A stretch of 64,000 bases of DNA from Patescibacteria group bacterium (GCA_040756075.1 JBFLZX010000001.1:28787-92786); one strand, 5' to 3'; shown: positions 19,319 through 63,898, counted from the stretch's first letter. A program made the numbers and translations. Notes: generated from the sequence alone by a model not told the origin.

Positions 19319-19320
19319 TT

Positions 19321-20421: not shown

Positions 20422-20422
20422 T

Positions 20423-29508: not shown

Positions 29509-29515
29509 TATAAAA

Positions 29516-31785: not shown

Positions 31786-31795
31786 GGAGAAACCG

Positions 31796-32488: not shown

Positions 32489-32491
32489 TAA

Positions 32492-37608: not shown

Positions 37609-37669
37609 TTTTTATCCAGTTGTTGAAATATTAAGAATAATAATAGTGTTTGGAAAGGAGTTTTGGATT

Positions 37670-38395: not shown

Positions 38396-38420
38396 ACGAA
38401 ACCACATCGAAGGAGAAAAA

Positions 38421-39176
38421 ATGAATCTAAAAAAAAGATTGAAATTAAAGAAGATAACAGTAGGTTCTTGGATAACCATTGGGGATTCTTCTGTGGCAGA
38501 GATTATGGCGAAATCTGATTTTGATTGGCTTGTGGTAGATATGGAGCATAGTGCTATAGAATTAGATGCTGCACAAAAACTTATACGGATTATTGAGCTT
38601 GCTGGTTGCATACCATTGGTTAGGGTAGGAGAGAATAATCCAGCGCTTATAAAACGTGTTATGGATGCAGGTGCGCATGGCGTAGTGGTTCCGATGGTTA
38701 ATAGCAAAGAAGAAGCCATAAGGGCTGTTAGAGCAGTTAAATACCCCCCCGGCGGTATAAGAGGCGTAGGGCTTGCGCGTGCACAAGGCTATGGTATGAG
38801 CTTCGAAAGCTATAAAAATTGGCTTAATCAGAATAGCATAGTAATTGTTCAGATAGAACATATAAATGCGGTTAAGAACCTTCAGCAGATATTAGACGTA
38901 GAGGGAGTGGATGGTTTTATAGTAGGGCCTTATGACCTCTCTGGTTCAATCGGAAAACCAGGAGAATTTAACGATCCCGAAGTAAAGGCTGCTTTAGAAA
39001 GAATAAAAATTGTGGCGGAGCAATTACATAAGCCTTCAGGAATCCACGTTATTCCTCCTGATTATAGAGAGGTAAATAAAAGGATAAAAGAAGGCTATAG
39101 TTTTATTGCATTTAGCCTTGATACATTATTTTTGGGGAAAAGCTGCAGAAATGGGCTTTCTAAAATCACAAGATAA
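38421..39176 (+). CDS. HpcH/HpaI-family class II pyruvate-dependent aldolase
   Basis: VGSWITIGDSSVAEIMAKSDFDWLVVDMEHS, VRVGENNP and MVNSKEEA...KYPPGGIRG blocks are characteristic of HpcH/HpaI/YfaU aldolases. Confidence 0.7.
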   Translation: MNLKKRLKLKKITVGSWITIGDSSVAEIMAKSDFDWLVVDMEHSAIELDAAQKLIRIIELAGCIPLVRVGENNPALIKRVMDAGAHGVVVPMVNSKEEAIRAVRAVKYPPGGIRGVGLARAQGYGMSFESYKNWLNQNSIVIVQIEHINAVKNLQQILDVEGVDGFIVGPYDLSGSIGKPGEFNDPEVKAALERIKIVAEQLHKPSGIHVIPPDYREVNKRIKEGYSFIAFSLDTLFLGKSCRNGLSKITR

Positions 39177-39185
39177 AAGGAGAAA

Positions 39186-39968
39186 ATGAATATGAAAATA
39201 GTCGGTTTTATACCTGCTCGTATGGGTTCAAGTCGTTTTCCAGGTAAGCCGCTAGCAGATATTTTAGGAAAAGCGATGATAGAACATGTTTATTATCGTA
39301 GTAAGCTATCAGATAAGCTAGACGACCTTTATATTGCAACGCCTGATAAAGAAATAGAGGACTATTGTCTTAGCAGGGATATAAAAGTTGTAATGACCAG
39401 CCCAGTGCATGAACGCGCTACCGATAGGACTGCCGAGGCAACGCAGAAAATAGAGAATAAAACGAATGAGAAAATAGACATTGTGATACTAATACAAGGC
39501 GATGAGCCTTTGTTATATCCTGAAATGATTAATCTTGCGTTGAAACCACTTATTAATGACAGTAATATTTTGACTTCTAATCTTATGTCGCCATTAAAAT
39601 CAATTGAGGAACAGGAAGATCCCAATGAGGTAAAGGTAGTAGTAGATAAAGATAATTTTGCCCTTTATTTTTCAAGAGAGCCTATACCATCAAGGAAAAA
39701 AGGCGCTAAGAATTTTGTTACAATGAAGCAGGTATGTATTATGCCTTGGAGAAGAGATTTTTTATTTAAATACACCAGCCTTAAGCAGACGCCGCTTGAG
39801 ATAATTGAATCGGTGGATACGCTTAGATGCATTGAGAATGGCTTTAAAGTAAAGATGGTTCCTTGCGATTTTAATACCTATAGTGTTGATACAATTAATG
39901 ATTTGAATAAGGTAAGAGAAATGATGAAGAAAGATAGTTTATTTTTAAAATATAGTAATATAAGGTAA
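39186..39968 (+). CDS. 3-deoxy-manno-octulosonate cytidylyltransferase-like (KdsB family)
   Basis: KIVGFIPARMGSSRFPGKPLADILGKAMIEHV matches the KdsB N-terminal signature. AAAGGAG RBS. Confidence 0.7.
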   Translation: MNMKIVGFIPARMGSSRFPGKPLADILGKAMIEHVYYRSKLSDKLDDLYIATPDKEIEDYCLSRDIKVVMTSPVHERATDRTAEATQKIENKTNEKIDIVILIQGDEPLLYPEMINLALKPLINDSNILTSNLMSPLKSIEEQEDPNEVKVVVDKDNFALYFSREPIPSRKKGAKNFVTMKQVCIMPWRRDFLFKYTSLKQTPLEIIESVDTLRCIENGFKVKMVPCDFNTYSVDTINDLNKVREMMKKDSLFLKYSNIR

Positions 39969-49427: not shown

Positions 49428-50879
49428 ATGAATTACAAAAAGATACTTTTGTTAAGGCCAAATTATAGAGAATCGCATTATGAATACACCGGTTTGCCTG
49501 CCGGCATAGGTTATATCTCAGAAGCATTGGATAAAGCAGGTATACCGCAGGAAGTCGTTGATATGTCATTGGGGTATAATTACACCTATCTTAAAAGGCG
49601 TATTGAAAAATTTAATCCGGATATGCTTGGCGTATCATTAATGAGCTTCAGGTATAAGGACCATTATGTTTTGATTAATAAGATCAAAGATGATTTTAAA
49701 AATTTAAAGATTATTGCTGGTGGGCCGCATATCTCAACTTTTAGAGAAAAATCTTTAATTGAATGTAATGCAATAGATTACGGGGTTACTTTGGAAGGCG
49801 AAGATGCAATGCTGGAACTTTGCATGAGGCAGGATAACCCTTTTAACATAAAAGGCCTCTTCTTTAAGAATCGCGACGGGATTGTTTATACTGGTGACAG
49901 GCAATTTAAGCAAAATCCGGATGTTTTTGGATTCCCGAAATATAAATTCTTTGAAAAAGATAAATATCCTAAATTTATTTCACTTTTAACTAGTCGCGGT
50001 TGTCCGTATAATTGTATATTTTGCCCTGTTCAGTTAACAATCGGTAAAAAATTACGCGTGAGGACTCCCGAGTCCGTATTAGATGAAATAAGTTATTGGT
50101 ACGAACAAGGAATAAGAGTTTTTAATGTGGTTGATGATAATTTTACTTTTTACAAACAAAGAGTTATAGATATTTGCGATGGCATCAAGAAAAGGAAGTT
50201 TAAAAATATAACTCTAAGTTGCAGAAATGGTATACGGGCCGATACCGTTGATAGAGAAACATTAAGATTTATGAAGGAAGTCGGATTTAACTATCTTGCC
50301 TTTGGTGTTGAAAGTGGTAGCGAAAAGATATTAAAGGTGTTAAAAAAAGGAGAAAATCTGTCTAAAATAAAAACAGCGATAAAAGATGCCTGTGAGCTTG
50401 GCTTTATGGTTACTTTATTTTTTATCATCGGCATGCCATACGAGACAGAGGAAGATGTTAGCGAATCATTAAAAATTGCAATGGAATTTCCTGTTTTTGA
50501 TGTCCGTTTTTATAATCCGATACCTTTTCCAGGAACGGAGTTATATGATTGGATAGCGAAGAACAATTATTTTAACAAATCCAACAGAGATTATTTAAAT
50601 AATCTTTCTCATTGGGTAAATAAGCCAATATTTGAAACACCAGAGCTACCTTTTGAAGCAAGAAAGGTTCTCTATGAGCGGCTCAATAAGATTATAAAAA
50701 AACATACTTTTAAAACAAAGATTTTATTCTTAAAAGATACAGAAAGGTTATTTACTAACCTTGGAATACCGCTTTTTTTAAGCAAATACCTGGCTAGAAT
50801 TTATTATACGCAGTTTTTTCAAATGTCTTTTATACAATCAGGATTAGCCGCAAAATTTAAAAAGTTTATTAAAAAATAG
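49428..50879 (+). CDS. B12-binding radical SAM protein
   Basis: N-terminal B12-binding-like domain. Radical SAM motif TSRGCPYNCIFCPV. Confidence 0.75.
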   Translation: MNYKKILLLRPNYRESHYEYTGLPAGIGYISEALDKAGIPQEVVDMSLGYNYTYLKRRIEKFNPDMLGVSLMSFRYKDHYVLINKIKDDFKNLKIIAGGPHISTFREKSLIECNAIDYGVTLEGEDAMLELCMRQDNPFNIKGLFFKNRDGIVYTGDRQFKQNPDVFGFPKYKFFEKDKYPKFISLLTSRGCPYNCIFCPVQLTIGKKLRVRTPESVLDEISYWYEQGIRVFNVVDDNFTFYKQRVIDICDGIKKRKFKNITLSCRNGIRADTVDRETLRFMKEVGFNYLAFGVESGSEKILKVLKKGENLSKIKTAIKDACELGFMVTLFFIIGMPYETEEDVSESLKIAMEFPVFDVRFYNPIPFPGTELYDWIAKNNYFNKSNRDYLNNLSHWVNKPIFETPELPFEARKVLYERLNKIIKKHTFKTKILFLKDTERLFTNLGIPLFLSKYLARIYYTQFFQMSFIQSGLAAKFKKFIKK

Positions 50880-50888
50880 CTTAAGAAT

Positions 50889-52022
50889 ATGAATATTTTT
50901 ACAGTCACAATGACACCGATAAATCCACCTTATGATGATGGAGCAAAAAATATCGTTTTGGGTATTGCAAATCATATAAAAAACCATAATTTTTATTTTA
51001 TTTCTGCTTTTACAAGGAGATTTAAGGCAGGCAGTAATATTTCTTTTATTTTTTCGCCTTTTCAGGGCGTTGGTATGCATAGCATGGCTTTTTTTCAGAA
51101 AATTTATATAACATTAATTATACTTTTAAGGATACAAAAAATAGATATTTTACAATTTTTTTTTACGCCGCAGATGTATTTTTCAAAAATTTTTGGCAAT
51201 TTAGTTAAGAGATACAATAAGAAATCAATCCAAATAGTTTCTTCTGTGCATACGCTTTTTAAAAAAAACTCAGCTGAGATTATACCAGCACTTTTTTTTG
51301 CGGATTATACAATAACCCATTCCGATTATACGAAAAATTTACTTACCGTATTAGGAGTAAAAAATGTACTCAAGGTCTATCCGGGAATAGAATTTAGCCG
51401 TTTTAGAGCTAACCCCTTAGGAAGAAAAAGTAATGATTTAACCGTTCTTTATGCGGGTACTTACAAGATCCTTAAAGAATCATATTCTTTCGAAGAATTT
51501 TATGAAATTTCCAGGATTGTGTGTGGAAATATAGAAAATTTAAAATTTATAATGGCCTGTCGAATAAGGTCAAAAGAAGATCGTTTATACGAAAAGACAT
51601 TTAAGAAGCTTGTAGAGAAAAATAATCTTTTACAGCATTTTATTTTTCTTAATACCGTAGAAGATATGCCTTCTTTAATAAATAATTGTTCTGTCGGAAT
51701 CATGCCGTCAAGGAATCAAATGTCCGGTGTCTTAGAGATTCCTCTTGTGTTGCTTGAGTTGGCGGCAATGGAAAAGCCCGTTATATATAGCGCGATTGAG
51801 CCATTTAATGAATTAGCAGATAAAGGTTTGGGAGTTTGTTTAAATGATATGTCTGCACAGAAATACGCAGAAACTATATTAGATATACTTAAAGATAGAA
51901 ATTTATACGATAATATTTCTAGGGATTCGAAAGATGCCGTTATGAAACATTTTGATATAGAAAAAACTGCTATTGAATATCAAAAAATCTATGCGGATTT
52001 AGAGAAAAATAATTATGAATAA
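50889..52022 (+). CDS. Putative GT-B fold glycosyltransferase (GT4-like)
   Basis: Two Rossmann-like halves, with a C-terminal EIPLVLLELAAMEKPVIYS block reminiscent of the GT4 nucleotide-sugar-binding region. Confidence 0.4.
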   Translation: MNIFTVTMTPINPPYDDGAKNIVLGIANHIKNHNFYFISAFTRRFKAGSNISFIFSPFQGVGMHSMAFFQKIYITLIILLRIQKIDILQFFFTPQMYFSKIFGNLVKRYNKKSIQIVSSVHTLFKKNSAEIIPALFFADYTITHSDYTKNLLTVLGVKNVLKVYPGIEFSRFRANPLGRKSNDLTVLYAGTYKILKESYSFEEFYEISRIVCGNIENLKFIMACRIRSKEDRLYEKTFKKLVEKNNLLQHFIFLNTVEDMPSLINNCSVGIMPSRNQMSGVLEIPLVLLELAAMEKPVIYSAIEPFNELADKGLGVCLNDMSAQKYAETILDILKDRNLYDNISRDSKDAVMKHFDIEKTAIEYQKIYADLEKNNYE

Positions 52023-53505
52023 TATACGTTTAATTATAAATGATGATTATCCCCTAGATAGTAATACATTAGATATTTTAAAGAGCATGAGCCAAGTAGA
52101 GGGCATAGTAAAGCCTATAGTTGCGCTTCCCGATGTGCATTTTAAATTTTCTTATTATACTCCTACAGGGGTAGTAGTTTTAAGTAAAAATACGATTATT
52201 CCTAAGTTTGTTAACGCAAATTGCGGCATGTCATTTATAATAACGCCATTTTTTGAAAATGATATTAGCGAAGTTATTCTTGATAAATTATTCGATTACC
52301 TTAGAACTAATATAGCCATTACGACAAGAATTTCTCCACTTATTTCCGTAAATGACCTTTCTGATATAGTAAAAAATGGCGCGGAATGGGTATTTGATAA
52401 GCATAGCTTAAATCGGCAGGATCTGCTAAACTTTGAAAATAATGGTTCGGCATTAAAAAACGACAAAAGGCCTATGGCTAAGATTATGTCATTTATACCA
52501 GAATATTGTAAGAAAATCGGTTTATATAGTTTAGGGGTTTTGGGTTATGGTAACCATTTCATAGAACTACAAAAAATAGATAAGGTAACAAATAAGCCAT
52601 TGGCAGATAAGTTTGGTATTTCTCCCGGACAGCTCTGTTTTATGATTCATAGTGATTCTCGGGCTTTCGGACAGTCTATTTATGACTTTTATTCGAAGAA
52701 AGCGAAAAAACTATTAGGCCTACAGCAAGTTTATAAAAAAATACACTATGCTATTGCATCTTCTGAAAACAGCCCGGAATTTATAAGGAATACGTTAAAT
52801 TTAACAAACCAGGCTTTAAACAGGTTAAAATCGACTCTTTATTGGAAATTAGATAGAATAAATAAAAAATCTTCTAAATTTGATGCCATAGGCATAGAGA
52901 CAGAAGAGGCAGATGCTTATATAACAAGCACTGCCTGTGCTATTAATTTTGGTTATGCCAACAGGACTTATTTAGCATCTATTATTCGCGATGGATTTAG
53001 AAAAGTGTTTAATAAAAATGCTGTCGATTTAACTATTCTTTATGATGGCAACCATGATAGCTTGCAGAAAGAAACTATAGATGGAAATGAGTTTATTGTA
53101 CATAGGAATGGGGCAAGCAGGGCATTGTCTCCGCAGTATTTTCCAAATCATCCGGTGTTTTCTTATACGGGACAACCGGTATTATTGCCAAGCGCTTTAG
53201 GAAGAATGTCTTTTTTATGCGCCGCTACGAAAGGATGTCCGGAATCATACTATTCGGCCTGTCACGGAACAGGAAGATTGATTGACAGGGGGCAGGCGAG
53301 ACAGATTTTTAAAACACAAGATGTTTTTAATGAAGTAAAAAAACAAAATATGAAAATTTACGATTATGGCAAAGGTTATATTTCCGAAGAATCTCCAGCT
53401 GCATTCAAAGATGCAGAGAAAATTTTAGAAACCGTTATTAACTACAATATAGCCGATCCGGTTGCAAGACTTAAACCATTAGCAGCGCTTAAAGGGTGGA
53501 GATAG
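52015..53505 (+). CDS. RtcB-family protein (RNA 3'-phosphate ligase homologue)
   Basis: IVALPDVH...NANCGM aligns with E. coli RtcB IAVMPDVH...VDIGCGM. GYGNHFIELQ aligns with GTGNHFIEI. SACHGTGR aligns with CSHGAGR, and the nucleophilic His is present. Confidence 0.65.
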   Translation: MNNIRLIINDDYPLDSNTLDILKSMSQVEGIVKPIVALPDVHFKFSYYTPTGVVVLSKNTIIPKFVNANCGMSFIITPFFENDISEVILDKLFDYLRTNIAITTRISPLISVNDLSDIVKNGAEWVFDKHSLNRQDLLNFENNGSALKNDKRPMAKIMSFIPEYCKKIGLYSLGVLGYGNHFIELQKIDKVTNKPLADKFGISPGQLCFMIHSDSRAFGQSIYDFYSKKAKKLLGLQQVYKKIHYAIASSENSPEFIRNTLNLTNQALNRLKSTLYWKLDRINKKSSKFDAIGIETEEADAYITSTACAINFGYANRTYLASIIRDGFRKVFNKNAVDLTILYDGNHDSLQKETIDGNEFIVHRNGASRALSPQYFPNHPVFSYTGQPVLLPSALGRMSFLCAATKGCPESYYSACHGTGRLIDRGQARQIFKTQDVFNEVKKQNMKIYDYGKGYISEESPAAFKDAEKILETVINYNIADPVARLKPLAALKGWR

Positions 53506-53506
53506 A

Positions 53507-54130
53507 ATGATTATAGCTTTTTGTGGAATCGATGGTTCCGGTAAAAGCACTTATGTTGGTTATACTATGGATTATTTAAATGCCAAAGGTTTAAAAACTA
53601 AATCTATACATATTATCAGAGATTCATTTTATCATTTTGTCCTTCATAACTATATTGGCAGGATTTCTTCTGTATCCCAAAAACGATTAGAGGATAATTT
53701 AAGAAACCCAAAAAATAAGATTTATCCCTTTATTGTAAAATTTTTAAAAAAAATATTATTATTTATGAATCTCATATATTTTAATTTAAAGCACCTATCC
53801 TATAAAGGCAATTTAAACAATAATATAGTTTGCGACAGGTATTTTTACGACGATTTAGTACAGATGAAATACTTAAAATTAGCTAAGGACAAATTCTTTT
53901 ATTTTTATGAAAAACTTATTATAAAGCCCGACATTATTTTTTTTGTAAAGGCAGATCCGCAAACTGCTTATTCAAGAAAATACGAATATAATTTAGATTA
54001 TTTTTTAAATAAAAATCGGTTATATTCCAATTTATTTAGCCATATTTTACACCTGGAATTAAGCCACCCGGACATAGAAAATAATAAGCAGTATATTTAT
54101 AGACAAATTGACGAAGTTATTCAAAGATAA
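53507..54130 (+). CDS. Thymidylate-kinase-family P-loop nucleotide/nucleoside-monophosphate kinase
   Basis: IIAFCGIDGSGKST P-loop (Tmk GxDGxGKST) and VCDRYFYD, which matches the Tmk DRY motif. Confidence 0.55.
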   Translation: MIIAFCGIDGSGKSTYVGYTMDYLNAKGLKTKSIHIIRDSFYHFVLHNYIGRISSVSQKRLEDNLRNPKNKIYPFIVKFLKKILLFMNLIYFNLKHLSYKGNLNNNIVCDRYFYDDLVQMKYLKLAKDKFFYFYEKLIIKPDIIFFVKADPQTAYSRKYEYNLDYFLNKNRLYSNLFSHILHLELSHPDIENNKQYIYRQIDEVIQR

Positions 54131-55071
54131 TGAACAGGAAACGATTGCTTCAGGTATTATTTATTACTATTATAACAGTGATGTTTATTATTTATTTCAG
54201 GAGAAATTATTCACATTTGAAAGATGTGATAAAGATAAAGCCGCATTTTTTAATTTGGTTGGTTCTATTAAATATTACAAACAAGATTTTGGGAGGTTTT
54301 AAAATAAGAACAGCCCTGGAGATATTTAAAATAAGGCTTTCTTTTATGCAGTGGTTTGGAGCTTCAGTTATTAATAATTTTTATAACTATCTTGCGCCTA
54401 AATCCGGTAGTGCGCTTTTAGCGGTTTATTTCAAAAATAATCATAAACTTGAGTACAACAAATATTTAAGCACCCTTGTAGTTATGGCTATGATTACTAT
54501 ATTAACTTTGGGTATAATAGGCTTTGTCACAAGTCTATATGCTTATAAAAACTATATTATAACAAGTTCTTTATTTATCTTAATTTTTATAGCCATGATT
54601 ACTCTGCCGCTTATTTTATTGATTATGCCGCGGATTTACTTTAATAAAAAGGGATTTTTTGAAAAAATAAATAGGTTTCTAGTAGGTTGGCATACCCTAC
54701 GCAAAAATAAAAAGATGATAGCATTGCTCTTTTTATCAGATGTAGGTATTTTAATGTCATTAGCCTTTCGTTACTATATTATGTTTAAAATGTTTTCATT
54801 AAATACCAACCTAATTAGCTGTATTCTTATAGCGCCATTTAACATCTTAATGCATTTTGCAACAATAGTACCTGGTGGCTATGGGATTAAAGAAGCAATT
54901 GTAGGCTTTGTATCCAAATTAACTAATATTGGTTTTGACGGAGGAGTTATATCAACATTAAGCGATAGGATAATAAATATGACAGTATCATTTATATTGG
55001 GGCCGCTATTTAGCTTTATTTTATTTAAGCGCATTTTTATACCTAAAAAGGAGATAGTAAAAAATGAATAA
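54130..55071 (+). CDS. Flippase-like integral membrane protein (UPF0104/LPG-synthase-TM-like)
   Basis: About 8 TM helices. The KIKPHFLIWLVLLNITNK start is typical of the flippase-like domain proteins that accompany GT2/GT-C pairs. Confidence 0.5.
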   Translation: MNRKRLLQVLFITIITVMFIIYFRRNYSHLKDVIKIKPHFLIWLVLLNITNKILGGFKIRTALEIFKIRLSFMQWFGASVINNFYNYLAPKSGSALLAVYFKNNHKLEYNKYLSTLVVMAMITILTLGIIGFVTSLYAYKNYIITSSLFILIFIAMITLPLILLIMPRIYFNKKGFFEKINRFLVGWHTLRKNKKMIALLFLSDVGILMSLAFRYYIMFKMFSLNTNLISCILIAPFNILMHFATIVPGGYGIKEAIVGFVSKLTNIGFDGGVISTLSDRIINMTVSFILGPLFSFILFKRIFIPKKEIVKNE

Positions 55072-56632
55072 ATATAAATCTTGCGCTTTGTTGATTTTGT
55101 TATTTTTTATGTCTTTTTATTCTTTATTTGGTATTGGGCATTTTGGCGGAGATGGTTACCAGGATTATTTAACTGCTGAAAGTATTGTTTTAGATCATAA
55201 TTTATCGCTAAACGATAGGCCAGAGGATATAGATGAATTACAATACATTAAAAGTTTTGGTATCAAGGGTACAGATAATAAAGTTTATAGTTCGCGCACG
55301 GGCTTAGGAGTGCCTATTATACTTGTTATATTTTATTTTTTTGGGCATGTTGCTTCTTTTTTATTTAAAGATTTACCGCATGATTTCATAACTATGTTTT
55401 TCGTTTCATTCGCTAATCCAGTTATCTGCGCATTATGTTGTTTTTTTGTGTTTGTCATCGCTAAGAAACTTAAATTTTCTTTACAAATATCGGCTATATT
55501 AGCGTTCATTTATGGCCTTTCTACTATGTTGCCTGTTTATGCAAGAACAGCATTTAACGAACCTGCTATAGGGCTATTTTTGCTTATTTCAATATATTTT
55601 ATATTAGACTATAAAAGCTCTTTAAATGTTCGTTGCTTAATTTTATCGGGATTGGCAATGGCATATTCATTTTTTATAAAACCGAGTAGTTTAATTTTTT
55701 TAGTTGCTTTATTGCCATATATTATGTGGATTAGTTTTGATTTAAAAATTAATAGTTTAAATAAAATAAAGCATTTTTTCTTTTATGTCGTTTCTCTATT
55801 AGTGCCGGTAATCTTAATCTGTATTTACAACCAGATTATCTATGGAGATTACCTAAAATTTGGCGGACAAGAAGCTTTTAAATTAGGAAAGCGCATTATG
55901 GGGTCAACACATCTATTAAAAGGATTTTATTATTATATGTTTAGTACGGGGAAAAGTTTTATTCTATTTAATATACCAATTGTTTTAGCATTTATCGGCG
56001 CATATAAAGCTTGGCAAGAAAGAAAAAAAGAAACGGTTTTATTCTTGTTAATATTTTTTGTTAATCTTTTATTCTTTGTTAAGTTTTTTAGGCGGGGATC
56101 ACTTTTTAGTTGGGGGCCACGTTATTTGCTGCCATCTTTGCCATTCTTAATATTTTTTATTGGGGATTATTGTCAAAATTATAGAAAGCTTATTTCAAAA
56201 GTAGCCCTATTTGTTTTATCTGTTATTGGTTTTTTGATTATGCTACCATGCTTATTTATAAATCAATCAAAATTTTATTTTTTTATCATTGAAAAGTTAA
56301 GGCTGGATGAATATATGATTAATTTTATCCCTGATTTGTCGCCGATACTTGGGGCATGGAATATGTTAATATCGAGAATTTATTTAAATTTAAAAGGGAT
56401 AGACATTCCCTTTATTTATAACCCGGATTATCGCCTTGTTAACCCTATATCAGCTAGCATGCTTGATTACAATAATTTTGATTTTTGGTTTTTGAAGATA
56501 ATCAAATATAAAACGGATTATAACTTTATTATTTCTTTATTAGTTTTATCTTTAGTTAGTTTAATATTATTATCAAGTAGTATTATTATAAAAATTTTGA
56601 TAAATAAAAATAATTCTCTAGATAATTATTAA
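55064..56632 (+). CDS. Polytopic membrane glycosyltransferase, GT-C fold (ArnT/PMT-like)
   Basis: At least 12 TM helices, with an acidic first loop (GDGYQDYLTAESIVLDHNL..DRPEDIDEL). Confidence 0.5.
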   Translation: MNKYKSCALLILLFFMSFYSLFGIGHFGGDGYQDYLTAESIVLDHNLSLNDRPEDIDELQYIKSFGIKGTDNKVYSSRTGLGVPIILVIFYFFGHVASFLFKDLPHDFITMFFVSFANPVICALCCFFVFVIAKKLKFSLQISAILAFIYGLSTMLPVYARTAFNEPAIGLFLLISIYFILDYKSSLNVRCLILSGLAMAYSFFIKPSSLIFLVALLPYIMWISFDLKINSLNKIKHFFFYVVSLLVPVILICIYNQIIYGDYLKFGGQEAFKLGKRIMGSTHLLKGFYYYMFSTGKSFILFNIPIVLAFIGAYKAWQERKKETVLFLLIFFVNLLFFVKFFRRGSLFSWGPRYLLPSLPFLIFFIGDYCQNYRKLISKVALFVLSVIGFLIMLPCLFINQSKFYFFIIEKLRLDEYMINFIPDLSPILGAWNMLISRIYLNLKGIDIPFIYNPDYRLVNPISASMLDYNNFDFWFLKIIKYKTDYNFIISLLVLSLVSLILLSSSIIIKILINKNNSLDNY

Positions 56633-56637
56633 ATGCA

Positions 56638-57585
56638 ATGGATATACATATAATTATATTAAATTATAACGGAATGGCTCTTTTAAAAAAACATCTACCA
56701 TCTGTAATCATGGCTCATAATCGTTGTTCATATAAAAGCCGCATAACTATTTTAGATAATGGGAGTACAGATGGGAGTTTGTTATATGTAAGAGAAAATT
56801 TTCCCGAAGTGAACATAAGTATTTCTCCAAAAAATTTAGTTTTAATTTCATACAACGCATTTATTCAACAAATAAAAGAAAAAGTTATATTATTGTTAAA
56901 TAATGATGTTAGGTTGTCGGAAGATTGTATTGATTTAATGATGCCACATTTTTTAGATAGTTCTGTTTTTTTTGTTTCTCCGCTTGTTTTGAATAAAGAT
57001 GGAAATGACTTAAACGGAGGCTGTATGGATTTTTCATTTAAATATGGATTATTTCAGAATAAATTCAAGCAGCCGACAGTTAATAAATATTCCTTATTTA
57101 TTGGGAGTAGCGTTGCTTTTGATAGGGATAAATTTCTGGCTTTAAGTGGATACGATTCTATTTATTTACCTGGCACTTACGAAGATGTAGATATATGCTA
57201 TAGGGCTTGGCAAAGGGGATGGTTTGGCATCTGTGAAAAAAAAGCAATCGCTTATCATGACGATTCGGCTTCGTTTAATAAGGAATACGGCAATAAAAAA
57301 CGCCAAATAATATCAGCTAGGAATGCTTATATATTTGTTTGGAAAAACATACACAGCCCCACGATACTCTGTACAAATATTATTTGTTATCCATTAGTAA
57401 TAATATTTAATATGATGCGTTTACGGTTTGATTTGGTTTTAGGTTACCTACAGGCCATTTTTTTATTACCTGCTATTTTTAAAAGAAGGATATTTTGTAA
57501 TAGGCAGATTAAAAGGACGGATTCAGAGATTAAACAACTTTTTAATAGCACATCAGGAGATAAAAATGTATATACTTGGAATTAA
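56638..57585 (+). CDS. GT2-family glycosyltransferase
   Basis: IIILNYNGMALLKKHLPSV, ILDNGSTDGS and a later YEDVDI block (DxD-like). Confidence 0.65.
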   Translation: MDIHIIILNYNGMALLKKHLPSVIMAHNRCSYKSRITILDNGSTDGSLLYVRENFPEVNISISPKNLVLISYNAFIQQIKEKVILLLNNDVRLSEDCIDLMMPHFLDSSVFFVSPLVLNKDGNDLNGGCMDFSFKYGLFQNKFKQPTVNKYSLFIGSSVAFDRDKFLALSGYDSIYLPGTYEDVDICYRAWQRGWFGICEKKAIAYHDDSASFNKEYGNKKRQIISARNAYIFVWKNIHSPTILCTNIICYPLVIIFNMMRLRFDLVLGYLQAIFLLPAIFKRRIFCNRQIKRTDSEIKQLFNSTSGDKNVYTWN

Positions 57586-59242
57586 TTGCGGACACGATGC
57601 AACAGCAGCCCTTATAAAAAATGAAAAAATTATAGCTGTTGTTCAGGAAGAAAGAAAAACGCGCATCAAACATCAAAATGGATTTCCCTTCTTAGCCATA
57701 AAAGAAGTATTATATATCGGTGGAATCGAAGCTAAGGATATAGATTATATTGCTTGGGCAGGAAATGATAGGCGGCTTCAATCAATAAAAGAGTTGTTTT
57801 GGGCAATAGGAGGAGATAAGTTTTATTCATATGGAGGAATAACTAAAAGGATTAAAACGGCTATAGCCGAAAATACAAAAGGAATATGGAATTTCAACGG
57901 CAATCTTAAGAAATTAAAATTAAACAAAAAGAAATCTTTCTTTTTTGAACATCATCTTTGTCATGCGTCATCGGCATACCGTAATTCGGGTTTTCAGAAA
58001 GCCCTAATTTTGACAATCGATGGCGTAGGAGATAATATTTCCGCTACAGTAAATATTGGAGATAAAGGTCTGATTAAAAGAATAGCAAAGACTAGCCCGA
58101 AACACAGTATCGGGTTGCTTTATCAAGCAGTAACCGAGGCATTAGGGTTTGTTCCTGTCGAAGGCGAATATAAAACTATGGGCCTTGCAGCTTATGGCGA
58201 TAAAATTAAACTCTACAACTATTTTAATAATATAATAAGCTATGAGAATTTAAGGTTTAAATCAAAATTTATATGGGAATCTAATTGGCAATTTCCTGCT
58301 CCTAGCATACGCCAACATATTTTATTCAAGAATTTACTCAAACAGTACAAAAAAGAAGATATAGCAGCGAGTTGTCAGGCTGTTTGCGAAGATGTAATTT
58401 ATAGATTTGTGAATGATGTTGTTAAGAAAACAGATATTCATAATATATGTGTTGCCGGCGGAGTTTTTCTTAATGTTAAAGCAAACAAAATAATTAGGGA
58501 AAAAGTCCCTCTAGATTCTTTATATATTCATCCGGATGCTGGCGATGGAGGTTTAGCTTTAGGGGCGGCTTTAGAATTATATTTTAACTTAACGGGCTCT
58601 ATGCCTAGAGACAAATTAGATAACACTTATTTTGGCAGGAGTTATGCTAATGAAGAAATAAAGAAAGAATTAGATAGAAATAATCTAAAGGTATATTATT
58701 TTGAAGATATTGAAAAAAAAGCAGCAGAATTATTAAAATCAGGAAAAGTCATAGGCTGGTTTCAGGGGAGAATGGAAATGGGCCCACGCGCCTTAGGTAA
58801 TAGGTCTGTTTTAGCAGATCCTCGTAATCCATCGGTGAAAGAAAAAATCAACAAACATCTTAAAAAACGCGATTGGTTTGTGCCATTTGCACCCTCAATT
58901 TTAGAGGAAGATAGCAATCTTTATATTAAGGAATTTAATGGGTATGCTCCTTTTATGATTATGGCGTTTGATGCTGACGTTACTAAAAAAGAGTTAATAC
59001 CAGCAGTTGTGCATGTTGATAATACGTTAAGGCCGCAGATCGTAAGAAAAGAATTCAATCTTTCGTACTGGAAGTTGATAAAGTCGTTTAAAGAGCTTAC
59101 TGGCATTGGCGTTGTATTGAATACCTCATTTAATAGGCATGGTTTACCGATGGTAGAATCTCCCAAGGATGCAGTGGAGCACTTATTGGACCGTAATATT
59201 GATACCCTAGTTATTGGGAATTATATCGTTGACAGGCCTTAA
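57566..59242 (+). CDS. Carbamoyltransferase (NodU/CmcH family)
   Basis: YILGINCGHDATAALIKNEKIIAVVQEERKTRIKH matches the family's N-terminal signature. The C-terminal domain has the usual FPFAPS and NTSFN blocks. Confidence 0.75.
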   Translation: MYILGINCGHDATAALIKNEKIIAVVQEERKTRIKHQNGFPFLAIKEVLYIGGIEAKDIDYIAWAGNDRRLQSIKELFWAIGGDKFYSYGGITKRIKTAIAENTKGIWNFNGNLKKLKLNKKKSFFFEHHLCHASSAYRNSGFQKALILTIDGVGDNISATVNIGDKGLIKRIAKTSPKHSIGLLYQAVTEALGFVPVEGEYKTMGLAAYGDKIKLYNYFNNIISYENLRFKSKFIWESNWQFPAPSIRQHILFKNLLKQYKKEDIAASCQAVCEDVIYRFVNDVVKKTDIHNICVAGGVFLNVKANKIIREKVPLDSLYIHPDAGDGGLALGAALELYFNLTGSMPRDKLDNTYFGRSYANEEIKKELDRNNLKVYYFEDIEKKAAELLKSGKVIGWFQGRMEMGPRALGNRSVLADPRNPSVKEKINKHLKKRDWFVPFAPSILEEDSNLYIKEFNGYAPFMIMAFDADVTKKELIPAVVHVDNTLRPQIVRKEFNLSYWKLIKSFKELTGIGVVLNTSFNRHGLPMVESPKDAVEHLLDRNIDTLVIGNYIVDRP

Positions 59243-59259
59243 AAATAAAGCATGTATTA

Positions 59260-60267
59260 ATGAAAAGAAAAAGTATTTTAAAAAGATTTGGTTCACAAGA
59301 ATTAGCAGTATGTGAGCAAGTTGCAGAAAAGCCATTTATAGAGCTGCAAGGCAATAATATTATGCCTCTACCAAAAGACTTTTTTTGTCTTAGAATTGAT
59401 GCAGATGAGCATAATGAAGAATTATTCGATGAATTTTTGAGTGTCTTTGATAACTTTAAAGATGCCATAACAATTTTTTTTAATGCACATAATTTTTCTT
59501 CTCTAAAAGATAAAATTATTAAATGCGCTAATTCAGGATTAGATGTTCAATCTCATGGGTATTACCACTATACTTATAATGACTACAGAAGCAATCGATA
59601 TAATATAAATAAAGCAAAGCGGTTTTTCGAAGAGTTAGGAATTACGACTATTGGATTTGCTGCTCCTATGGGGAAATGGAATGAGAGTTTAATGTATGCC
59701 TTGGAAGATGAGGGCTATGAATATTCCTCGGACTTTAGTTATGATTATTTAGGCTTTCCGACTTATCCTAATTTAGGAAATAGAGTATCTAGTATCCTTG
59801 AAATTCCAATTTTTCCTGTTGCGCCAGAGTTATTTTTTCAAAATAATAATTTTAACTCAAGGAGAATCTTAGAATTTTATGAAAATGCTATTAAAGAAAT
59901 AAGTTCTTGTGGGCTACCGGTAATAATTTATGCTCATACAAGTAATTATAATGAAATACCTAAACTTTTAAACAGCATATTAGAATTTGCTATTCTAAAA
60001 AATAAACTAACTCCTATTAATCTAACAAATTTTTATAATTTATGGAAAAAAATTCATCCGCAGAAAATACAGATGACCAGTAGGGCGGATAAAATAAAAA
60101 TACCAAATTCAGATCTTTTAGGAGAAACGATAAACTTAGAGATAAATAGTTTTTTAAAAAACTATTTTAAAAACTTGATTGATTTTGAACGGATTACTCC
60201 CTTAGATGAAATTCAATACGGATGGTTTAAAAAAACGATAAACAAAGTATTAAGAAATTTTTTATAA
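59260..60267 (+). CDS. Putative polysaccharide deacetylase-like (NodB homology) protein
   Basis: LRIDADEH (a TFDDG-like motif 1), QSHGYYH (an H-x3-H motif 2) and FAAPMGKWN (an RPPYG-like motif). The match is weak. Confidence 0.4.
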   Translation: MKRKSILKRFGSQELAVCEQVAEKPFIELQGNNIMPLPKDFFCLRIDADEHNEELFDEFLSVFDNFKDAITIFFNAHNFSSLKDKIIKCANSGLDVQSHGYYHYTYNDYRSNRYNINKAKRFFEELGITTIGFAAPMGKWNESLMYALEDEGYEYSSDFSYDYLGFPTYPNLGNRVSSILEIPIFPVAPELFFQNNNFNSRRILEFYENAIKEISSCGLPVIIYAHTSNYNEIPKLLNSILEFAILKNKLTPINLTNFYNLWKKIHPQKIQMTSRADKIKIPNSDLLGETINLEINSFLKNYFKNLIDFERITPLDEIQYGWFKKTINKVLRNFL

Positions 60268-60286
60268 TATTATAAACGGAGGAGTT

Positions 60287-61252
60287 ATGCCTAATTTTTA
60301 TAATAAAAAAAGAGTTTTAATAACCGGTGCTGATGGTTTTATGGGCTCTCATCTTGTAGAGCGGTTACTTGCTGAAGGCGCAAAAGTATCGGTTTATGTG
60401 AGGGGAAATTCTGTCTCTGGGACAACCCAATATAACCTTAAGAATATAAAGCACTTAGAGAGGTATTTGTCTGAAATAATCACTGGTAATATTGCTACTT
60501 TAGATGCAAAAGATCTTGTAATTAAAAATAAGCCAGAAGTTATATTTCATCTTGCGGCTGATGCGTATGTGCCAAACTCATTTGACCATCCGATTGAGGT
60601 AATGGAAACAAATGTTATTGGTACATTGAATATGTTATGCGCTGTTAAAGAAGACAAGAAAATTAAACGCATTGTTTGTACTTCATCTAGTGAAATTTAT
60701 GGCATGACTTTAGGTGGTTCGATTAATGAAGAACATCCACTTTATCCATCAAGCCCCTATGCAGCAAGTAAGGTTGCTGCAGATAGATATGCCTACGCAT
60801 ATTGGAATACCTATAAGCTACCTATTGCGATTATCCGGCCATTTAATACATATGGCCCACGCCACACCTACGATGTAATACCAAAATTTATTGATTTAGC
60901 GCTAAAGAATAGAGCCATAACTGTGCATGGGAGCGGTAGTCAGTCTCGTGATTTTACATATGTCGATGATATGATAGATGCCTTTTTGATTATGGGCAGC
61001 CACGATAAAGCAATTGGCAAGGCAGTAAATTTTGGCACAGGACGCGCGGTAACTATAAATTATATTGCAAAAAAAATAAAGGACATAGCTAAATCAAACT
61101 CAAGAATAGTTCATACAGAACAAAGGCTTGCAGAGGTGCCTAAGCTTTTGTGTAATTATTCATTGGCTAATAAATTATTTGGATGGAAGCCAAAAATTTT
61201 TATTGATGAAGGGTTAAGGAGAAATGTCGAATGGGCAAAACAAAGCCAATAG
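60287..61252 (+). CDS. NAD-dependent sugar-nucleotide epimerase/dehydratase (UDP-glucuronate decarboxylase / 4-epimerase-like extended SDR)
   Basis: [18 protein letters not shown] and YAASK. GGAGG RBS. Confidence 0.7.
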
Positions 61253-62787
61253 AAAAATATTTCCGTGATAAAAATGCTTTAATTTCTAAAACCGCCAAAA
61301 TAGGTGCAGGCACTAAAATTTGGGCGTTTGCGCAAATTGGAGATAATGCGCGAATTGGCAATAATTGTGTTATAGGAAATGGTGTTTATATCGATAGAAA
61401 TGTTGTAGTTGGCAATAATGTAAAAATTCATAATAGGGCATTGCTTTACGATGGCTTAGTTGTTGAAGATAACTGCTTTATTGGCCCTGGTGCATGTTTT
61501 ACAAATGATAAGCTGCCAAGACACAATACAACACGTAATTTAGCAGATAAAACTTGGCGAGTGAGAGAAGGGGCAAGCATTGGTGCAAATGCAACAGTGC
61601 TGCCAGATATAACAATTGGGAAAAATGCTGTTATTGGTGCGGGCTCAGTAGTTACAAAAGATGTGCCTGATAATGCGACTGTTTATGGAAATCCCTCTAA
61701 AATAATTAAAATCCATAAAAATAACCAAGTAAGTTCAGGAGAAAGTTTAAAATTAGTTTGCAATTGGATTATAAATTCTGGCCTGCAGGCAAAAAATGGT
61801 GGTTTTTACGCGTGGCTTGACCTAAATGCAAATGCATATTCGTATATTTATTCAGAAATAACCGGCTATGGTATTACGACTCTGCTTTTTTTGAATGAAC
61901 TAAAAAAAGCAGAATTAGCCGCTGATTGGATTATTAAAAAATCAATACAGCCTTGTGGGGGGGTTAGAACAGGTAAGGGTGAGTTTGATAATTTATTTAC
62001 CTTTGATACTGGAATGGTCTTGTATGGCTTAATAAATTTATTTAAAGCCGCTAAAAAGCAAGAATATCTTAATATCTCAAAAAAAATTGCTGATTTTTTA
62101 TTAGCGAATCAGAGAAGTAATGGTTCACTTGCCCCGATTTATTCGTTAAAAACAAATAAAACAATTGAAACACTTGATAAATGGTCAACTCAAAGTGGTA
62201 CATATCATGCAAAAGTAGCTTTAGGGTTAGTCGATCTATTTAGAATTACAAAAAACGATATTTACAAAAATGCGGCAATAAAGCTCTGTAAATTTACCTT
62301 AACTTTGCAAGATAAATCAGGCAGGTTCATCACAAATAAAAAAGATAATACCACTCATATTCATCCGCATTCTTATGCGGCAGAAGGTTTACTATACACC
62401 GGGGCAATTTTAAAAATTAAAGAATTTGTCGCTGCGGCAAAAAAATCTGTTGAGTGGTCATTTAAAAATTTATCCGGTTATGGTATAAATGAGCTTTATA
62501 ATCCGTTTTCGAATACTTTTAATGATTTTCAAAGAAGCGATATCCTCGCGCAAGTATTAAGATTGGGAATTATCTTTTCTTTAGATTCAAAAAAAATAGA
62601 AGAATTGGCATCTTTATTACTTGCTTATCAATATAATGGCCAAAATAAGCAGAAAGGCGGCTTTTTTTATTCAAAGAATGACTTACACTTAAATTCTTGG
62701 TGCTCAATGTTTGCTTTACAAGCATTAGCGCTATACCAAAATAAAAAATTAATCGGCAAAAATGGCAAAGTTGAACTGTTTATCTGA
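61231..62787 (+). CDS. Hexapeptide-repeat (LbH) acyl/acetyltransferase fused to a C-terminal alpha/alpha-toroid domain that carries GGF-type repeats
   Basis: N-terminal roughly 170 aa: [54 protein letters not shown], which is FdtC/WxcM-like. C-terminal roughly 340 aa: recurring NGGFYAW, CGGVRT, SGRF and KGGFFYS repeats like those of prenyltransferase/terpene-cyclase beta repeats. Confidence 0.55.
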
Positions 62788-63898
62788 AAAAAAACTAGGG
62801 TTTGTTTTTGGCACGCGGCCGGAGATTATAAAACTAAGCCCCATAATTAAACTCTGTCAAAAAATAAAAATTCCATTCTTCTGTATTCATACAGGCCAAC
62901 ATTACTCTCATGAGATGGATAAAATATTTTTTAAAGACTTGAATTTACCGCTTCCAAAATATAGGTTGCAAATAAAATCAAGCGCGCCATTTAAGCAAGG
63001 AGAGCATACTGGCAGGATGTTGATTGAACTTGAGAAAATTCTATTAAAAGAAATGCCTTATTGTATATTAATCCAAGGCGATACAAATACGGTTTTAGCA
63101 GCTGCTCTGACTGCAGAGAAAATATCAACCACTGAAAGCTATACAGGTTTTCATATAAGAATAGCCCATGTAGAAGCCGGCCTAAGAAGCTATGACAGAA
63201 GCATGCCCGAAGAAACAAATCGGTTTATTACTGACCATCTTTCAGACTTTTTATTTACGCCTACCAATAATGAAAAAGAAATTTTATTAAGAGAAGGTGT
63301 TGATAAATCAAAAATATTCACTGTTGGCAACACAATTGTTGACTCAGTGAAGAATAATATTAAATCGGCTTTATTAAAAAGCGAAATTTTAAAAACTTTG
63401 GGGCTAAAACGACATAAATATTTATTAACAACTATTCACCGTCAAGAAAATGTAGATTCAAAGGAAATATTTAGCAATATTTTATCCGGGTTAGAAAAAG
63501 TTAATGATAGTTTGAAGCTGCCTATGATTTTTCCAATTCACCCTCGTACAGCAAAGATGATGGATAAATTCAATTTGAGCTTGCCAAAGAGCATAACACC
63601 AATAGCGCCAGTTGGATTTATGGATTTTCTTTTACTTGAAAGTAACGCAGCATTAATCTTAACTGATTCGGGCGGTATTCAGGAAGAGGCGTGTATTTTA
63701 AAAGTACCATGTGTTACGTTAAGAAGTAATACTGAACGGCCAAAAACTGTAAAAGTTAAGGCAAATATGATTTCATATAACAAACCAGATAGAATATTAA
63801 GCTATGCATTAAAAATGATAAACGCTAGAAGAAAATGGAAGAATCCATTTGGCGATGGCAAAACAAGCCAGCGTATAATCGAGGCGATATTGAATTAG
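62762..63898 (+). CDS. UDP-N-acetylglucosamine 2-epimerase (WecB/NeuC family)
   Basis: [13 protein letters not shown] and HVEAGLRS motifs. Confidence 0.8.

Follow-up and report, generated by a model that had tools for sequence, protein, structure and literature searches.

Predicted carbamoyltransferase and atypical CE4 deacetylase at the centre of a conserved surface-glycan cassette with a variable position

Closest described systems

The rhizobial Nod-factor set is comprised of NodC (GT2), NodB (CE4), NodS (N-methyltransferase), NodU and NolO (O-carbamoyltransferases), NodL (hexapeptide O-acetyltransferase) and NodPQ/NodH (sulfation). The Arn pathway of Enterobacteria contains the formyltransferase/decarboxylase ArnA, ArnC, the deformylase ArnD, ArnT and ArnE/F. 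We compared both systems with the window, that is, the whole 64,000-nucleotide stretch of DNA analysed here, from a Patescibacteria group bacterium.

The window shares enzyme families and logic with the Nod-factor set, in which a cytoplasmic CE4 enzyme removes the N-acetyl group from the product of the GT2, and methylation, carbamoylation or acylation of that residue follows; the window also has genes for a hexapeptide transferase and for PAPS synthesis. However, no window protein is orthologous to a Nod protein: the NodB and NodC models give no match, the NodU equivalog model reaches 147 against a cut-off of 1000 bits, and the fold of the window GT2 is not that of the processive synthase. Moreover, the context in the window is that of a surface-glycan locus, which includes GT-C and flippase-like genes, rather than of a pathway for lipo-chitooligosaccharides, and no NodA-like N-acyltransferase is encoded.

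The likeness to the Arn pathway is twofold. In related cassettes at other loci (sister cassettes), a GT2 is combined with an N-formyltransferase resembling ArnA, with a CE4 enzyme of the cytoplasm, and with an extended SDR, a GT-C and a flippase-like protein, the order being similar to that of the Arn genes; and ArnD is a structural neighbour of the window deacetylase. In contrast, the relationships to ArnC, ArnT and ArnD are not significant by sequence, the cassette has no ArnB-type aminotransferase, the window has a carbamoyltransferase and no formyltransferase, and the deacetylase is kept even in the absence of a formyl group to remove.

Three further comparisons concern the carbamoyltransferase. 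WapO (PA5005), a putative heptose 7-O-carbamoyltransferase of the Pseudomonas LPS core (PMC8005017), is likewise a NodU-family enzyme within a surface-glycan gene cluster, but it has no paired CE4 deacetylase or exchangeable slot, targets a heptose hydroxyl and belongs to another phylum and cassette. TobZ, NovN and GdmN share with the window protein the two-domain architecture and all catalytic residues, whereas their acceptors are secondary metabolites in antibiotic pathways; GdmN and NovN carry an additional C-terminal domain for dimerisation (PMC9633730), which is missing from the window protein of 558 aa. StdF, a NodU-like lysine N-epsilon-carbamoyltransferase of a RiPP pathway that makes homocitrulline, belongs to the same family and illustrates that amine carbamoylation is possible (PMC13174530), but it differs in its peptide substrate, its peptidase fusion and its lack of glycan context.

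A conserved cassette with a variable position

The carbamoyltransferase, the deacetylase and the SDR form the centre of a conserved surface-glycan cassette of 12 genes, which recurs in Omnitrophota and metagenome contigs. Open reading frames were recovered at 57566, 59260 and 60287, all on the + strand. The cassette, whose upstream end is formed by the radical SAM and GT1 genes, reads as follows:

49428-50879, + strand: B12-binding radical SAM enzyme (Pfam; 61-65% identity in sister loci)
50889-52022, + strand: GT1 glycosyltransferase (Pfam; 44-51% identity in sister loci)
52015-53505, + strand: RtcB-family ligase homolog, 496 aa (PF01139, 281 bits)
53507-54130, + strand: thymidylate-kinase-like P-loop kinase, 207 aa (PF02223, 32.9 bits)
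54130-55071, + strand: LPG_synthase_TM flippase-like membrane protein (PF03706, 86 bits; conserved in the cassette)
55064-56632, + strand: GT-C-type (PMT-like) membrane glycosyltransferase, 522 aa (PF02366, 24.6 bits; NCBIfam LA_3751/3752, 64 bits)
56638-57585, + strand: GT-A fold family-2 glycosyltransferase (GT2), 315 aa, with C-terminal hydrophobic helices (Pfam GT2 families)
57566-59242, + strand: predicted class III (NodU/CmcH/TobZ-type) carbamoyltransferase, 558 aa (Pfam, PDB matches, catalytic residues); the variable slot
59260-60267, + strand: predicted atypical cytoplasmic CE4 (NodB-fold) deacetylase, 335 aa (PF01522, AF2 model, Foldseek)
60287-61252, + strand: extended SDR nucleotide-sugar enzyme, 321 aa (Pfam, NCBIfam, PDB match)
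61231-62787, + strand: hexapeptide (NeuD/PglD-like) acyltransferase fused to an (alpha/alpha)6 domain, 518 aa (Pfam Hexapep, NCBIfam NeuD)
62762-63898, + strand: non-hydrolysing UDP-GlcNAc 2-epimerase, WecB (TIGR00236, 363 bits vs a 210-bit cut-off)

The gene order is identical in seven loci (L081, L083, L084, L088, L119, L120 and L125). The SDR is the most conserved cassette gene (74-83% identity across loci), while the GT-C and the kinase show 35-55% and 36-50% identity among cassettes, respectively, and the RtcB homolog, which keeps every RtcB motif, shows 57-61% in L118, L119, L120 and L125. The GT2 has orthologs at 47-53% identity in carbamoyltransferase-type and formyltransferase-type cassettes alike, and the fused 61231 protein corresponds to two separate genes in L081, L083, L120 and L125. 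The GT2 and carbamoyltransferase genes overlap by 20 nt, gaps of 17 and 19 nt separate the carbamoyltransferase from the deacetylase and the deacetylase from the SDR, and an AGGAG Shine-Dalgarno sequence lies 6 nt upstream of the carbamoyltransferase ATG. Such tight spacing and overlaps, together with promoter and terminator scans at chance level, are consistent with a predicted co-transcription.

The variable element is the slot between the GT2 and the deacetylase. In 37 loci with a deacetylase homolog, this slot holds a formyltransferase, a fused methyltransferase or nothing, while it holds a carbamoyltransferase in the window and at least three other loci (L118, L119 and L120/121), whose enzymes form a clade with 59-71% identity to that of the window. 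The formyltransferase of the sister cassettes is an ArnA/WbkC-like N-formyltransferase, either free or fused to the deacetylase. Formyltransferase and carbamoyltransferase occur together in no locus examined, and no PF00551 domain is present anywhere in the window. The identity of the flanking genes to the window is similar for the formyltransferase-type L125 (43-77% per gene) and the carbamoyltransferase-type L120 (32-78%), and the swap in the slot is therefore the only difference. The order GT2-carbamoyltransferase-deacetylase is kept in three independent loci, although the proteins there are only 45-63% identical.

Gene fusions tie the slot to its neighbours. Of 79 deacetylase homologs, 30 carry a fused formyltransferase domain (Formyl_trans_N), and a glycosyltransferase-formyltransferase-deacetylase fusion was also found (P0446). 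Two further proteins (P0320 and P0321) are triple GT2-methyltransferase-deacetylase fusions, and so the glycosyltransferase, the slot transferase and the deacetylase can be regarded as one unit, of which the window GT2 is the first member; the GT2 domain of P0321 is 35% identical to it over the full length (E 9e-59). All these findings point to the carbamoyltransferase as the carbamoyl version of an interchangeable slot, with an exchangeable decoration step on one sugar residue. The locus thus offers a concrete case in which one sugar-tailoring enzyme (formyl, methyl or carbamoyl) is exchanged for another as a module while the rest of the cassette stays orthologous, and in which fusions join a glycosyltransferase and a tailoring enzyme to a rare cytoplasmic CE4 deacetylase, as a single unit. 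It also suggests a probable role for a small, uncharacterised CE4 subfamily and a carbamoyltransferase clade of uncultivated bacteria.

Carbamoyltransferase, deacetylase and their cassette partners

The 57566 protein combines a Kae1-like N-domain and a YrdC-like C-domain in one polypeptide. It matches Pfam Carbam_trans_N (PF02543; 190.8 bits, E 5.7e-56, residues 3-336, cut-off 24) and Carbam_trans_C (PF16861; 218.3 bits, E 6.4e-65, residues 387-557, cut-off 27), and its closest solved relatives are NovN, TobZ and GdmN (PDB sequence matches, E 1e-65 to 1e-71), which confirms the family named in the preliminary description. The His/Asp metal site and the C-terminal carbamoyl-phosphate/ATP motifs are fully conserved: residues H10, H129, H133, D152, D327, R408, K433, R435, M464, N519 and S521 are invariant across a 24-sequence alignment. 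Among them, H129, H133, D152, D327 and H10 align with identical TobZ residues of the Fe site and the general-base His, and K433, R435, M464 and S521, plus R408 and N519, are identical to the TobZ residues of the carbamoyl phosphate/ATP site. In TobZ, this site, in the YrdC-like domain, has K443, R445, M473 and S530. The counterparts in GdmN are H133, H137, D156 and D333 for the Fe site and H27 for the general-base His (PMC9633730). A TsaD/Kae1 tRNA t6A transferase identity was rejected, with scores of 20 bits for PF00814 (cut-off 24.8) and 23.1 for TIGR03723 (cut-off 296.1), as was NodU proper (NCBIfam equivalog NF041651, 147.3 bits, cut-off 1000). From its sequence, 57566 is thus assigned as a complete class III carbamoyltransferase with all catalytic residues intact, and carbamoylation activity is predicted.

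The 59260 protein matches Pfam Polysacc_deac_1 (PF01522; 40.5 bits, cut-off 23.1), and its AlphaFold (AF2) model (pLDDT 89.3) contains an N-terminal beta-hairpin and a C-terminal helical extension. Foldseek retrieved CE4 structures at E 3e-11 to 1e-5, with 3rxz, PuuE, HpPgdA and ArnD 8t0j at 3e-11 to 3e-8. The canonical CE4 motif 1 is TFDD, holding the catalytic-base Asp and a metal-binding Asp, and motif 2 is H(S/T)xxH, with two metal-binding His (PMC6463723). Residues D47, D49, H99, H103 and H226 are invariant in 59260 homologs. Specifically, motif 1 reads R-I-D47-A-D49-E, in which the two Asp are one residue apart (D-A-D, not DD), as in RIDVDT of E. coli ArnD; motif 2 reads S-H99-G-Y-Y-H103; and motif 5 (LxH, with the catalytic-acid His) appears as the invariant Y224-A-H226-T227 at the end of strand 221-226. 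Motif 3 (RxPY) normally supplies an arginine for stabilising the catalytic base, but 59260 lacks it, its F-A-A-P136-M-G138 conserving only the Pro and Gly, and consequently the substrate, and even the activity, are uncertain. A cytoplasmic location is predicted, since ATP and carbamoyl phosphate are needed and relatives are fused to folate- or SAM-dependent domains. The family is rare, with 991 of 1.84e9 cluster representatives. Hence, the NodB-like nature proposed earlier holds for the fold, while 59260 is not a typical NodB: it is, as predicted from sequence and model, a rare, atypical, cytoplasmic CE4 deacetylase.

As for the neighbours, the AF2 model of the GT2 (pLDDT 93.6) is nearest to ppGalNAc-T and RmlT by Foldseek. 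The 60287 protein, previously called an SDR epimerase, is indeed an extended SDR (Pfam Epimerase 194 bits, GDP_Man_Dehyd 214 bits), but the epimerase part is not retained, as the best profile and structure matches are LegB/RmlB-type 4,6-dehydratases (NCBIfam LegB-like 249 bits and RmlB 188 bits, both under cut-off) and Pal (6bwl, the best PDB match). The 61231 protein matches Pfam Hexapep, weakly GH88, and the NCBIfam NeuD family (113 bits).

Predicted tailoring route and alternatives

Our preferred reading, to which we assign a probability of about one half, is that the GT2, the carbamoyltransferase and the CE4 deacetylase constitute one cytoplasmic tailoring unit that modifies one HexNAc-derived residue in a surface glycan with Nod-factor-like logic, a hydroxyl being the favoured target. 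WecB, the SDR and the hexapeptide acyltransferase/(alpha/alpha)6 protein would supply the precursor, and the GT2, judging from its fold and fusions, would put the residue on a membrane-proximal acceptor. The metal-dependent deacetylase, with its conserved Asp/His set, may then strip the N-acetyl group and expose an amine. By homology, the YrdC-like domain of 57566 would convert carbamoyl phosphate and ATP into carbamoyl-AMP, and the Kae1-like Fe site, with His10 as the general base, would move the carbamoyl group onto the de-N-acetylated residue. The product would probably be an O-carbamoylated amino sugar, as in characterised sugar-directed family members, which the flippase-like protein and the GT-C may export or attach. 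The acceptor, the sugar and the order of steps in the cassette are predictions throughout. Three findings speak against this reading: the deacetylase lacks the motif 3 arginine, the top 150 family representatives include no fusion of it with a carbamoyltransferase, and it is not near the carbamoyltransferase in any of 80 distant loci. To our knowledge, all characterised sugar-directed class III carbamoyltransferases (NodU, NolO, TobZ, NovN, GdmN and the putative WapO) act on hydroxyls. In L118, moreover, the GT2-carbamoyltransferase pair is kept with no deacetylase within 10 kb, which fits a hydroxyl target independent of de-N-acetylation.

These two observations argue at the same time against a less probable but serious rival reading, in which the deacetylase frees the C-2 amine and 57566 carbamoylates that amine, giving a 2-ureido (N-carbamoyl) sugar as the counterpart of the N-formamido sugar of formyltransferase cassettes. 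PF00551 formyltransferases are known to formylate amines only, and the carbamoyltransferase takes the exact position of such an enzyme while the rest of the cassette is orthologous. In sister cassettes, the enzyme in the slot has its closest relatives in the sugar N-formyltransferases WbkC and ArnA-NTD; it is an obligate amine acylator physically fused to the deacetylase in the homologs counted above, which argues for action on the freed amine, and the two slot enzymes are mutually exclusive at every locus seen. The deacetylase is the obvious source of an amine, because none of the sister cassettes has an aminotransferase within 10 kb, and the superfamily is able to attack amines, as TsaD/Kae1 enzymes acylate adenine N6 and StdF makes homocitrulline. 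On the other hand, a free amine is viable as an end product, because cassettes without a slot enzyme exist, and the fusions among those top 150 representatives do not include a carbamoyltransferase-deacetylase protein. In the literature searched, we found no description of an N-carbamoyl sugar in an O-antigen or of a 2-ureido sugar in bacterial glycans. If the freed amine were the target, this would be a new sugar modification made by the first N-carbamoylating sugar-directed NodU/TobZ-family member, and GT2-slot-deacetylase would work as a module for N-tailoring with exchangeable groups (H, formyl, methyl, carbamoyl), diversifying surface antigens in Omnitrophota-like bacteria.

We regard as improbable an Arn-like transient masking, by which the slot enzyme would mask the nucleotide-sugar amine for the GT2 and the CE4 enzyme would then unmask it by deformylation or decarbamoylation, as happens to L-Ara4N through ArnA-NTD, ArnC and ArnD. 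The order GT2-formyltransferase-CE4-SDR with GT-C and flippase-like genes resembles arnC-arnA-arnD-arnT-arnEF, ArnD 8t0j is among the top structural matches of 59260 (rank 11, E 2.7e-8), PuuE, a ureide-hydrolysing CE4 enzyme, is among its structural neighbours, and hhalign pairs LRIDADE and SHGYYH of 59260 with LRIDVDT and LHAWDH of ArnD. However, that alignment to E. coli ArnD reaches a probability of only 16.8% (E 1.5e-3), the NCBIfam ArnD model does not match 59260 at E <= 0.01, and neither the GT2 with ArnC (BLAST E 0.06) nor the GT-C with ArnT shows significant similarity. The GT2 fold does not have polyprenyl-phosphate glycosyltransferases as its nearest matches, the cassette has no aminotransferase, and the deacetylase is retained in methyltransferase-type and empty-slot cassettes, where no acyl mask exists. 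An identity of 59260 as ArnD deformylase was rejected, there being no profile membership and no ArnC-type partner, and the similarity is in fold only.

It is equally hard to credit that the carbamoyltransferase and the deacetylase modify separate residues or glycans and are adjacent through packing in a very large glycan locus, even though ~55 glycan genes lie on a single strand of the window, several GT-C among them with small GT2 genes close by, and carbamoyltransferases occur without an adjacent CE4 deacetylase of the 59260 type in L118 and L122/123 and in all of 80 distant loci (0/80 with such a deacetylase nearby), since the three-gene order persists despite the divergence given above, the slot enzyme and deacetylase, and also the GT2, are fused as single polypeptides in relatives, and the rarity of the deacetylase family makes chance adjacency negligible.

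Beyond the cassette, the sulfation, methylation and acetylation functions reported previously were found in the window. The single, exceptionally decorated glycan drawn from them is not established: the window possibly serves more than one glycan, because it holds several GT-C enzymes, with small GT2 genes close by, and a nonulosonic-acid module. PAPS synthesis is encoded by an ATP sulfurylase (19321) and an APS kinase fused to a sulfatase-like domain (17165), and the window additionally contains several class-I methyltransferases, GNAT and hexapeptide acyltransferases, and five B12-radical-SAM enzymes.

Catalytic sites of the carbamoyltransferase and the deacetylase

The preliminary description named a NodU/CmcH-family carbamoyltransferase, a putative NodB-fold deacetylase and an SDR epimerase, and all three ORFs are present as it described them:

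57566-59242, + strand, carbamoyltransferase, 558 aa (Carbam_trans_N 190.8 bits, Carbam_trans_C 218.3 bits)
59260-60267, + strand, deacetylase, 335 aa (Pfam Polysacc_deac_1)
60287-61252, + strand, extended SDR protein

The NCBI entries for the first two are MEW6407143.1 and MEW6407144.1. The carbamoyltransferase matches the class III architecture of its family in its N- and C-terminal parts alike, while the TsaD profile reaches 20 bits, under its cut-off, so the protein is not a TsaD. With the NodU equivalog model it reaches 147 bits where 1000 are required, which places the enzyme inside the family, not as a NodU ortholog. The nearest solved structures are NovN, TobZ and GdmN, with E-values of ~1e-65 to 1e-71. 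In GdmN, iron is bound by H133, H137, D156 and D333 and the general base is H27, all conserved across the class (PMC9633730). The equivalents in the window protein are H129, H133, D152 and D327, plus H10. Additionally, the YrdC-domain residues K433, R435, M464 and S521 align with TobZ K443, R445, M473 and S530, in the numbering of Parthier et al. 2012. Conservation of the catalytic site is thus borne out, since all Fe-site, base and YrdC-domain residues are identical to those of TobZ in a HMMER alignment and invariant in 24 homologs; as far as the sequence can tell, the catalytic apparatus is intact.

The NodB-type (CE4) similarity of the deacetylase was likewise confirmed. The protein clears the Polysacc_deac_1 threshold modestly (40.5 versus 23.1 bits), and its AlphaFold model, built with 32 homologs as input, is confident (pLDDT 89.3) and retrieves CE4 enzymes in Foldseek, the nearest being the atypical group of 3rxz, PuuE, HpPgdA and 3s6o, with ArnD (8t0j) at rank 11. 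Measured against the canonical CE4 motifs (PMC6463723), the family has an invariant D47-A-D49 in motif 1 instead of DD, keeps motif 2 (S-H99-x-x-Y-H103) and motif 5 (Y224-x-H226), and lacks the motif-3 arginine. The deacetylase thus combines a CE4 fold and a set of conserved Asp and His residues; it carries no signal peptide. The family is rare: an exhaustive profile search found it in 991 of 1.84 billion representatives, 209 of them at E <= 1e-30.

By contrast with these two proteins, the 'epimerase' label of the SDR protein is not established, because its top matches, LegB/RmlB-type dehydratases and Pal, all fall under their equivalog cut-offs. The interpretation given in the preliminary description is partly supported, and the cassette context described below improves on it.

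A conserved cassette with an exchangeable slot

The three genes belong to a cassette (window 49428-63898) with the order B12-radical-SAM enzyme, GT1, RtcB, TMK-like kinase, LPG_synthase_TM, GT-C, family-2 glycosyltransferase (GT2), slot, deacetylase, SDR, hexapeptide transferase, (alpha/alpha)6 protein and WecB. Deacetylase homologs of 40-51% identity sit in loci of the same gene order, and it is the slot that differs. In sister cassettes it holds a 230-aa formyltransferase, either free or joined to the deacetylase N-terminus and closest to WbkC and ArnA-NTD, both of which N-formylate sugars; in others it holds a fused class-I methyltransferase or is empty. The formyltransferase domain PF00551 is present in 30 of the 79 deacetylase homologs and nowhere in the window, where the slot holds the carbamoyltransferase. 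Formyltransferase and carbamoyltransferase occur together in none of the loci seen.

The carbamoyltransferase first seemed unique to the window's slot (0 of 37 in the first sample of deacetylase loci), yet its close clade, at 59-71% identity, yielded three further loci, so that the apparent uniqueness was a sampling effect. Two of these, L119 and L120/121, show GT2, carbamoyltransferase and deacetylase within the same cassette; the third, L118, keeps the upstream block up to and including the carbamoyltransferase and is missing the deacetylase-to-WecB block. L118 is the closest carbamoyltransferase-type locus examined, and at 11674-12555 a 293-aa protein with no Pfam match and a signal-peptide-like N-terminus replaces the missing block. 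Gene by gene, the formyltransferase-type locus L125 (43-77% identity) is as close to the window as the carbamoyltransferase-type L120 (32-78%), which indicates a clean non-orthologous replacement at the slot. A neighbour-joining tree had suggested that GT2 co-varies with slot type; this was rejected because the L125 GT2 is as near to the window GT2 as those of carbamoyltransferase-type loci.

Fusions in relatives join the same activities. GT2, methyltransferase and CE4 deacetylase form a single polypeptide in P0320 (818 aa) and P0321 (865 aa), as do glycosyltransferase, formyltransferase and deacetylase in P0446 (951 aa), and the fused GT2 is homologous to that of the window (35% identity, E 9e-59). 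These fusions indicate that GT2, slot enzyme and deacetylase constitute one functional unit, which is cytoplasmic, since the partner enzymes require ATP, folate or SAM. P0321 had been guessed from its length to be a carbamoyltransferase-deacetylase fusion, which its GT2-methyltransferase-deacetylase domains exclude. In a broader set of ~500-aa proteins, the CE4 core is preceded by an N-terminal region of 100-200 aa, with no Pfam match there in the four proteins scanned. Promoter and terminator scans gave chance-level results.

The source of the carbamoyltransferase and the deacetylase is labelled by NCBI as a 'Patescibacteria group bacterium' MAG, in which both lie on a contig of 109,970 bp. 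All named relatives of the cassette genes (deacetylase, GT2) are Omnitrophota or plain 'bacterium', and sister loci (among L081, L084, L088, L118, L121 and L125) carry Glyco_transf_9 genes, which are heptosyltransferase-type and LPS-like. The taxonomic placement of the MAG merits a check.

The group that receives the carbamoyl moiety

By fold, the window GT2 (56638-57585) belongs to the GT-A enzymes, with ppGalNAc-T and RmlT as its closest neighbours. It would attach a HexNAc-type residue, from which the CE4 enzyme would strip the N-acetyl group, and the slot enzyme would then decorate that same residue. Among known systems, the one that works most similarly is Nod-factor tailoring (NodC, NodB, NodS, NodU, NodL, NodPQ/H), where a single de-N-acetylated residue is modified in the cytoplasm by the same enzyme families. 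No window protein clears an ortholog threshold for its members. The nearest case of a NodU-family enzyme encoded within a surface-glycan cluster is WapO, from the LPS-core cluster of Pseudomonas (PMC8005017).

We put at roughly one half the probability that the carbamoyltransferase acts on a hydroxyl within the GT2-carbamoyltransferase-deacetylase unit. To our knowledge, all characterised sugar-directed members of its family are O-carbamoyltransferases. Furthermore, L118 keeps the enzyme without a deacetylase, and empty-slot cassettes suggest that a free amine is acceptable as the end product. A possible but less probable alternative is N-carbamoylation of the amine freed by the deacetylase: the carbamoyltransferase sits where sister cassettes have an enzyme that acylates only amines and is frequently joined to the deacetylase, no aminotransferase gene lies in the cassette, and the NodU-like StdF provides a precedent for N-carbamoylation (PMC13174530). 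A literature search for N-carbamoyl sugars in O-antigens gave nothing relevant, and an N-carbamoyl product would make the system of greater interest.

Arn-like masking is improbable. The formyltransferase-type sister cassettes have a gene set and gene order like those of the Arn pathway, a resemblance that does not extend to sequence membership; a strict Arn analogy fails several sequence and fold tests, and orthology was unsupported on comparison with the E. coli arn proteins. Moreover, the deacetylase is retained with a formyl-, methyl- or carbamoyltransferase or an empty slot, so its substrate must not depend on what the slot encodes, and this speaks against ArnD-like de-masking. A homolog of the window deacetylase was absent from 80 representative-genome loci of many phyla with a carbamoyltransferase relative (<=40% identity), and the pairing is thus specific to a clade, not to the family. 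That the two enzymes are unrelated neighbours is improbable.

The surrounding glycan locus

The window is a single long same-strand glycan locus of ~55 genes, with several PMT-type GT-C enzymes and small GT2 genes near them, methyltransferases, acyltransferases, a nonulosonic-acid module, PAPS synthesis and five B12-radical-SAM enzymes. All ORFs of meaningful length read in the + direction, and the window has a GC skew that stays positive from end to end and a low GC content (27-36%).

9889-13769, +, extended SDR-DegT-family aminotransferase fusion (726 aa), then PMT-type GT-C
17165-21385, +, sulfatase-like-APS kinase fusion, ATP sulfurylase, stand-alone pyruvate-kinase barrel domain
26202-34330 and 37646-39968, +, nonulosonic-acid-type module
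36070, +, Wzx-type flippase
ORF starts 2031, 24716, 28057, 39973 and 49428, +, B12-binding radical SAM enzymes
52015-54130, +, adjacent RtcB-family ligase homolog and thymidylate-kinase-like P-loop kinase, both conserved in the cassette

Among the cassette members, the B12-radical-SAM enzyme at 49428-50879 is 61-65% identical in sister loci. The RtcB homolog is full-length, keeps every RtcB catalytic motif (NCG, GNHF, HSDSR, GNHD and CHGTGR), is 57-61% identical in L118, L119, L120 and L125, and also occurs in L081 and L086. A literature search on RtcB in polysaccharide loci gave nothing relevant; it is no more than speculation that this RNA-ligase-type protein forms a phosphodiester on a sugar phosphate. 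A single 518-aa ORF (61231-62787) joins the hexapeptide acyltransferase to the (alpha/alpha)6 protein, the latter weakly GH88/GH127-like; they are two genes in L081, L083, L120 and L125, the loci inspected gene by gene.

The sulfatase-like domain, of the alkaline-phosphatase superfamily, forms a 717-aa fusion with APS kinase and may transfer sulfuryl groups, since no canonical sulfotransferase was seen among window ORFs of >= 120 aa. The aminotransferase half of the 726-aa fusion is closest to ArnB (428 bits, missing the cut-off of 631) and PseC, and 9889-13769 may form a distinct module that delivers an aminosugar. The nonulosonic-acid-type module comprises NeuB, three CTP_transf_3 cytidylyltransferases, WbqC, a PIG-L deacetylase, a GNAT protein and a long Epimerase_2-like protein.
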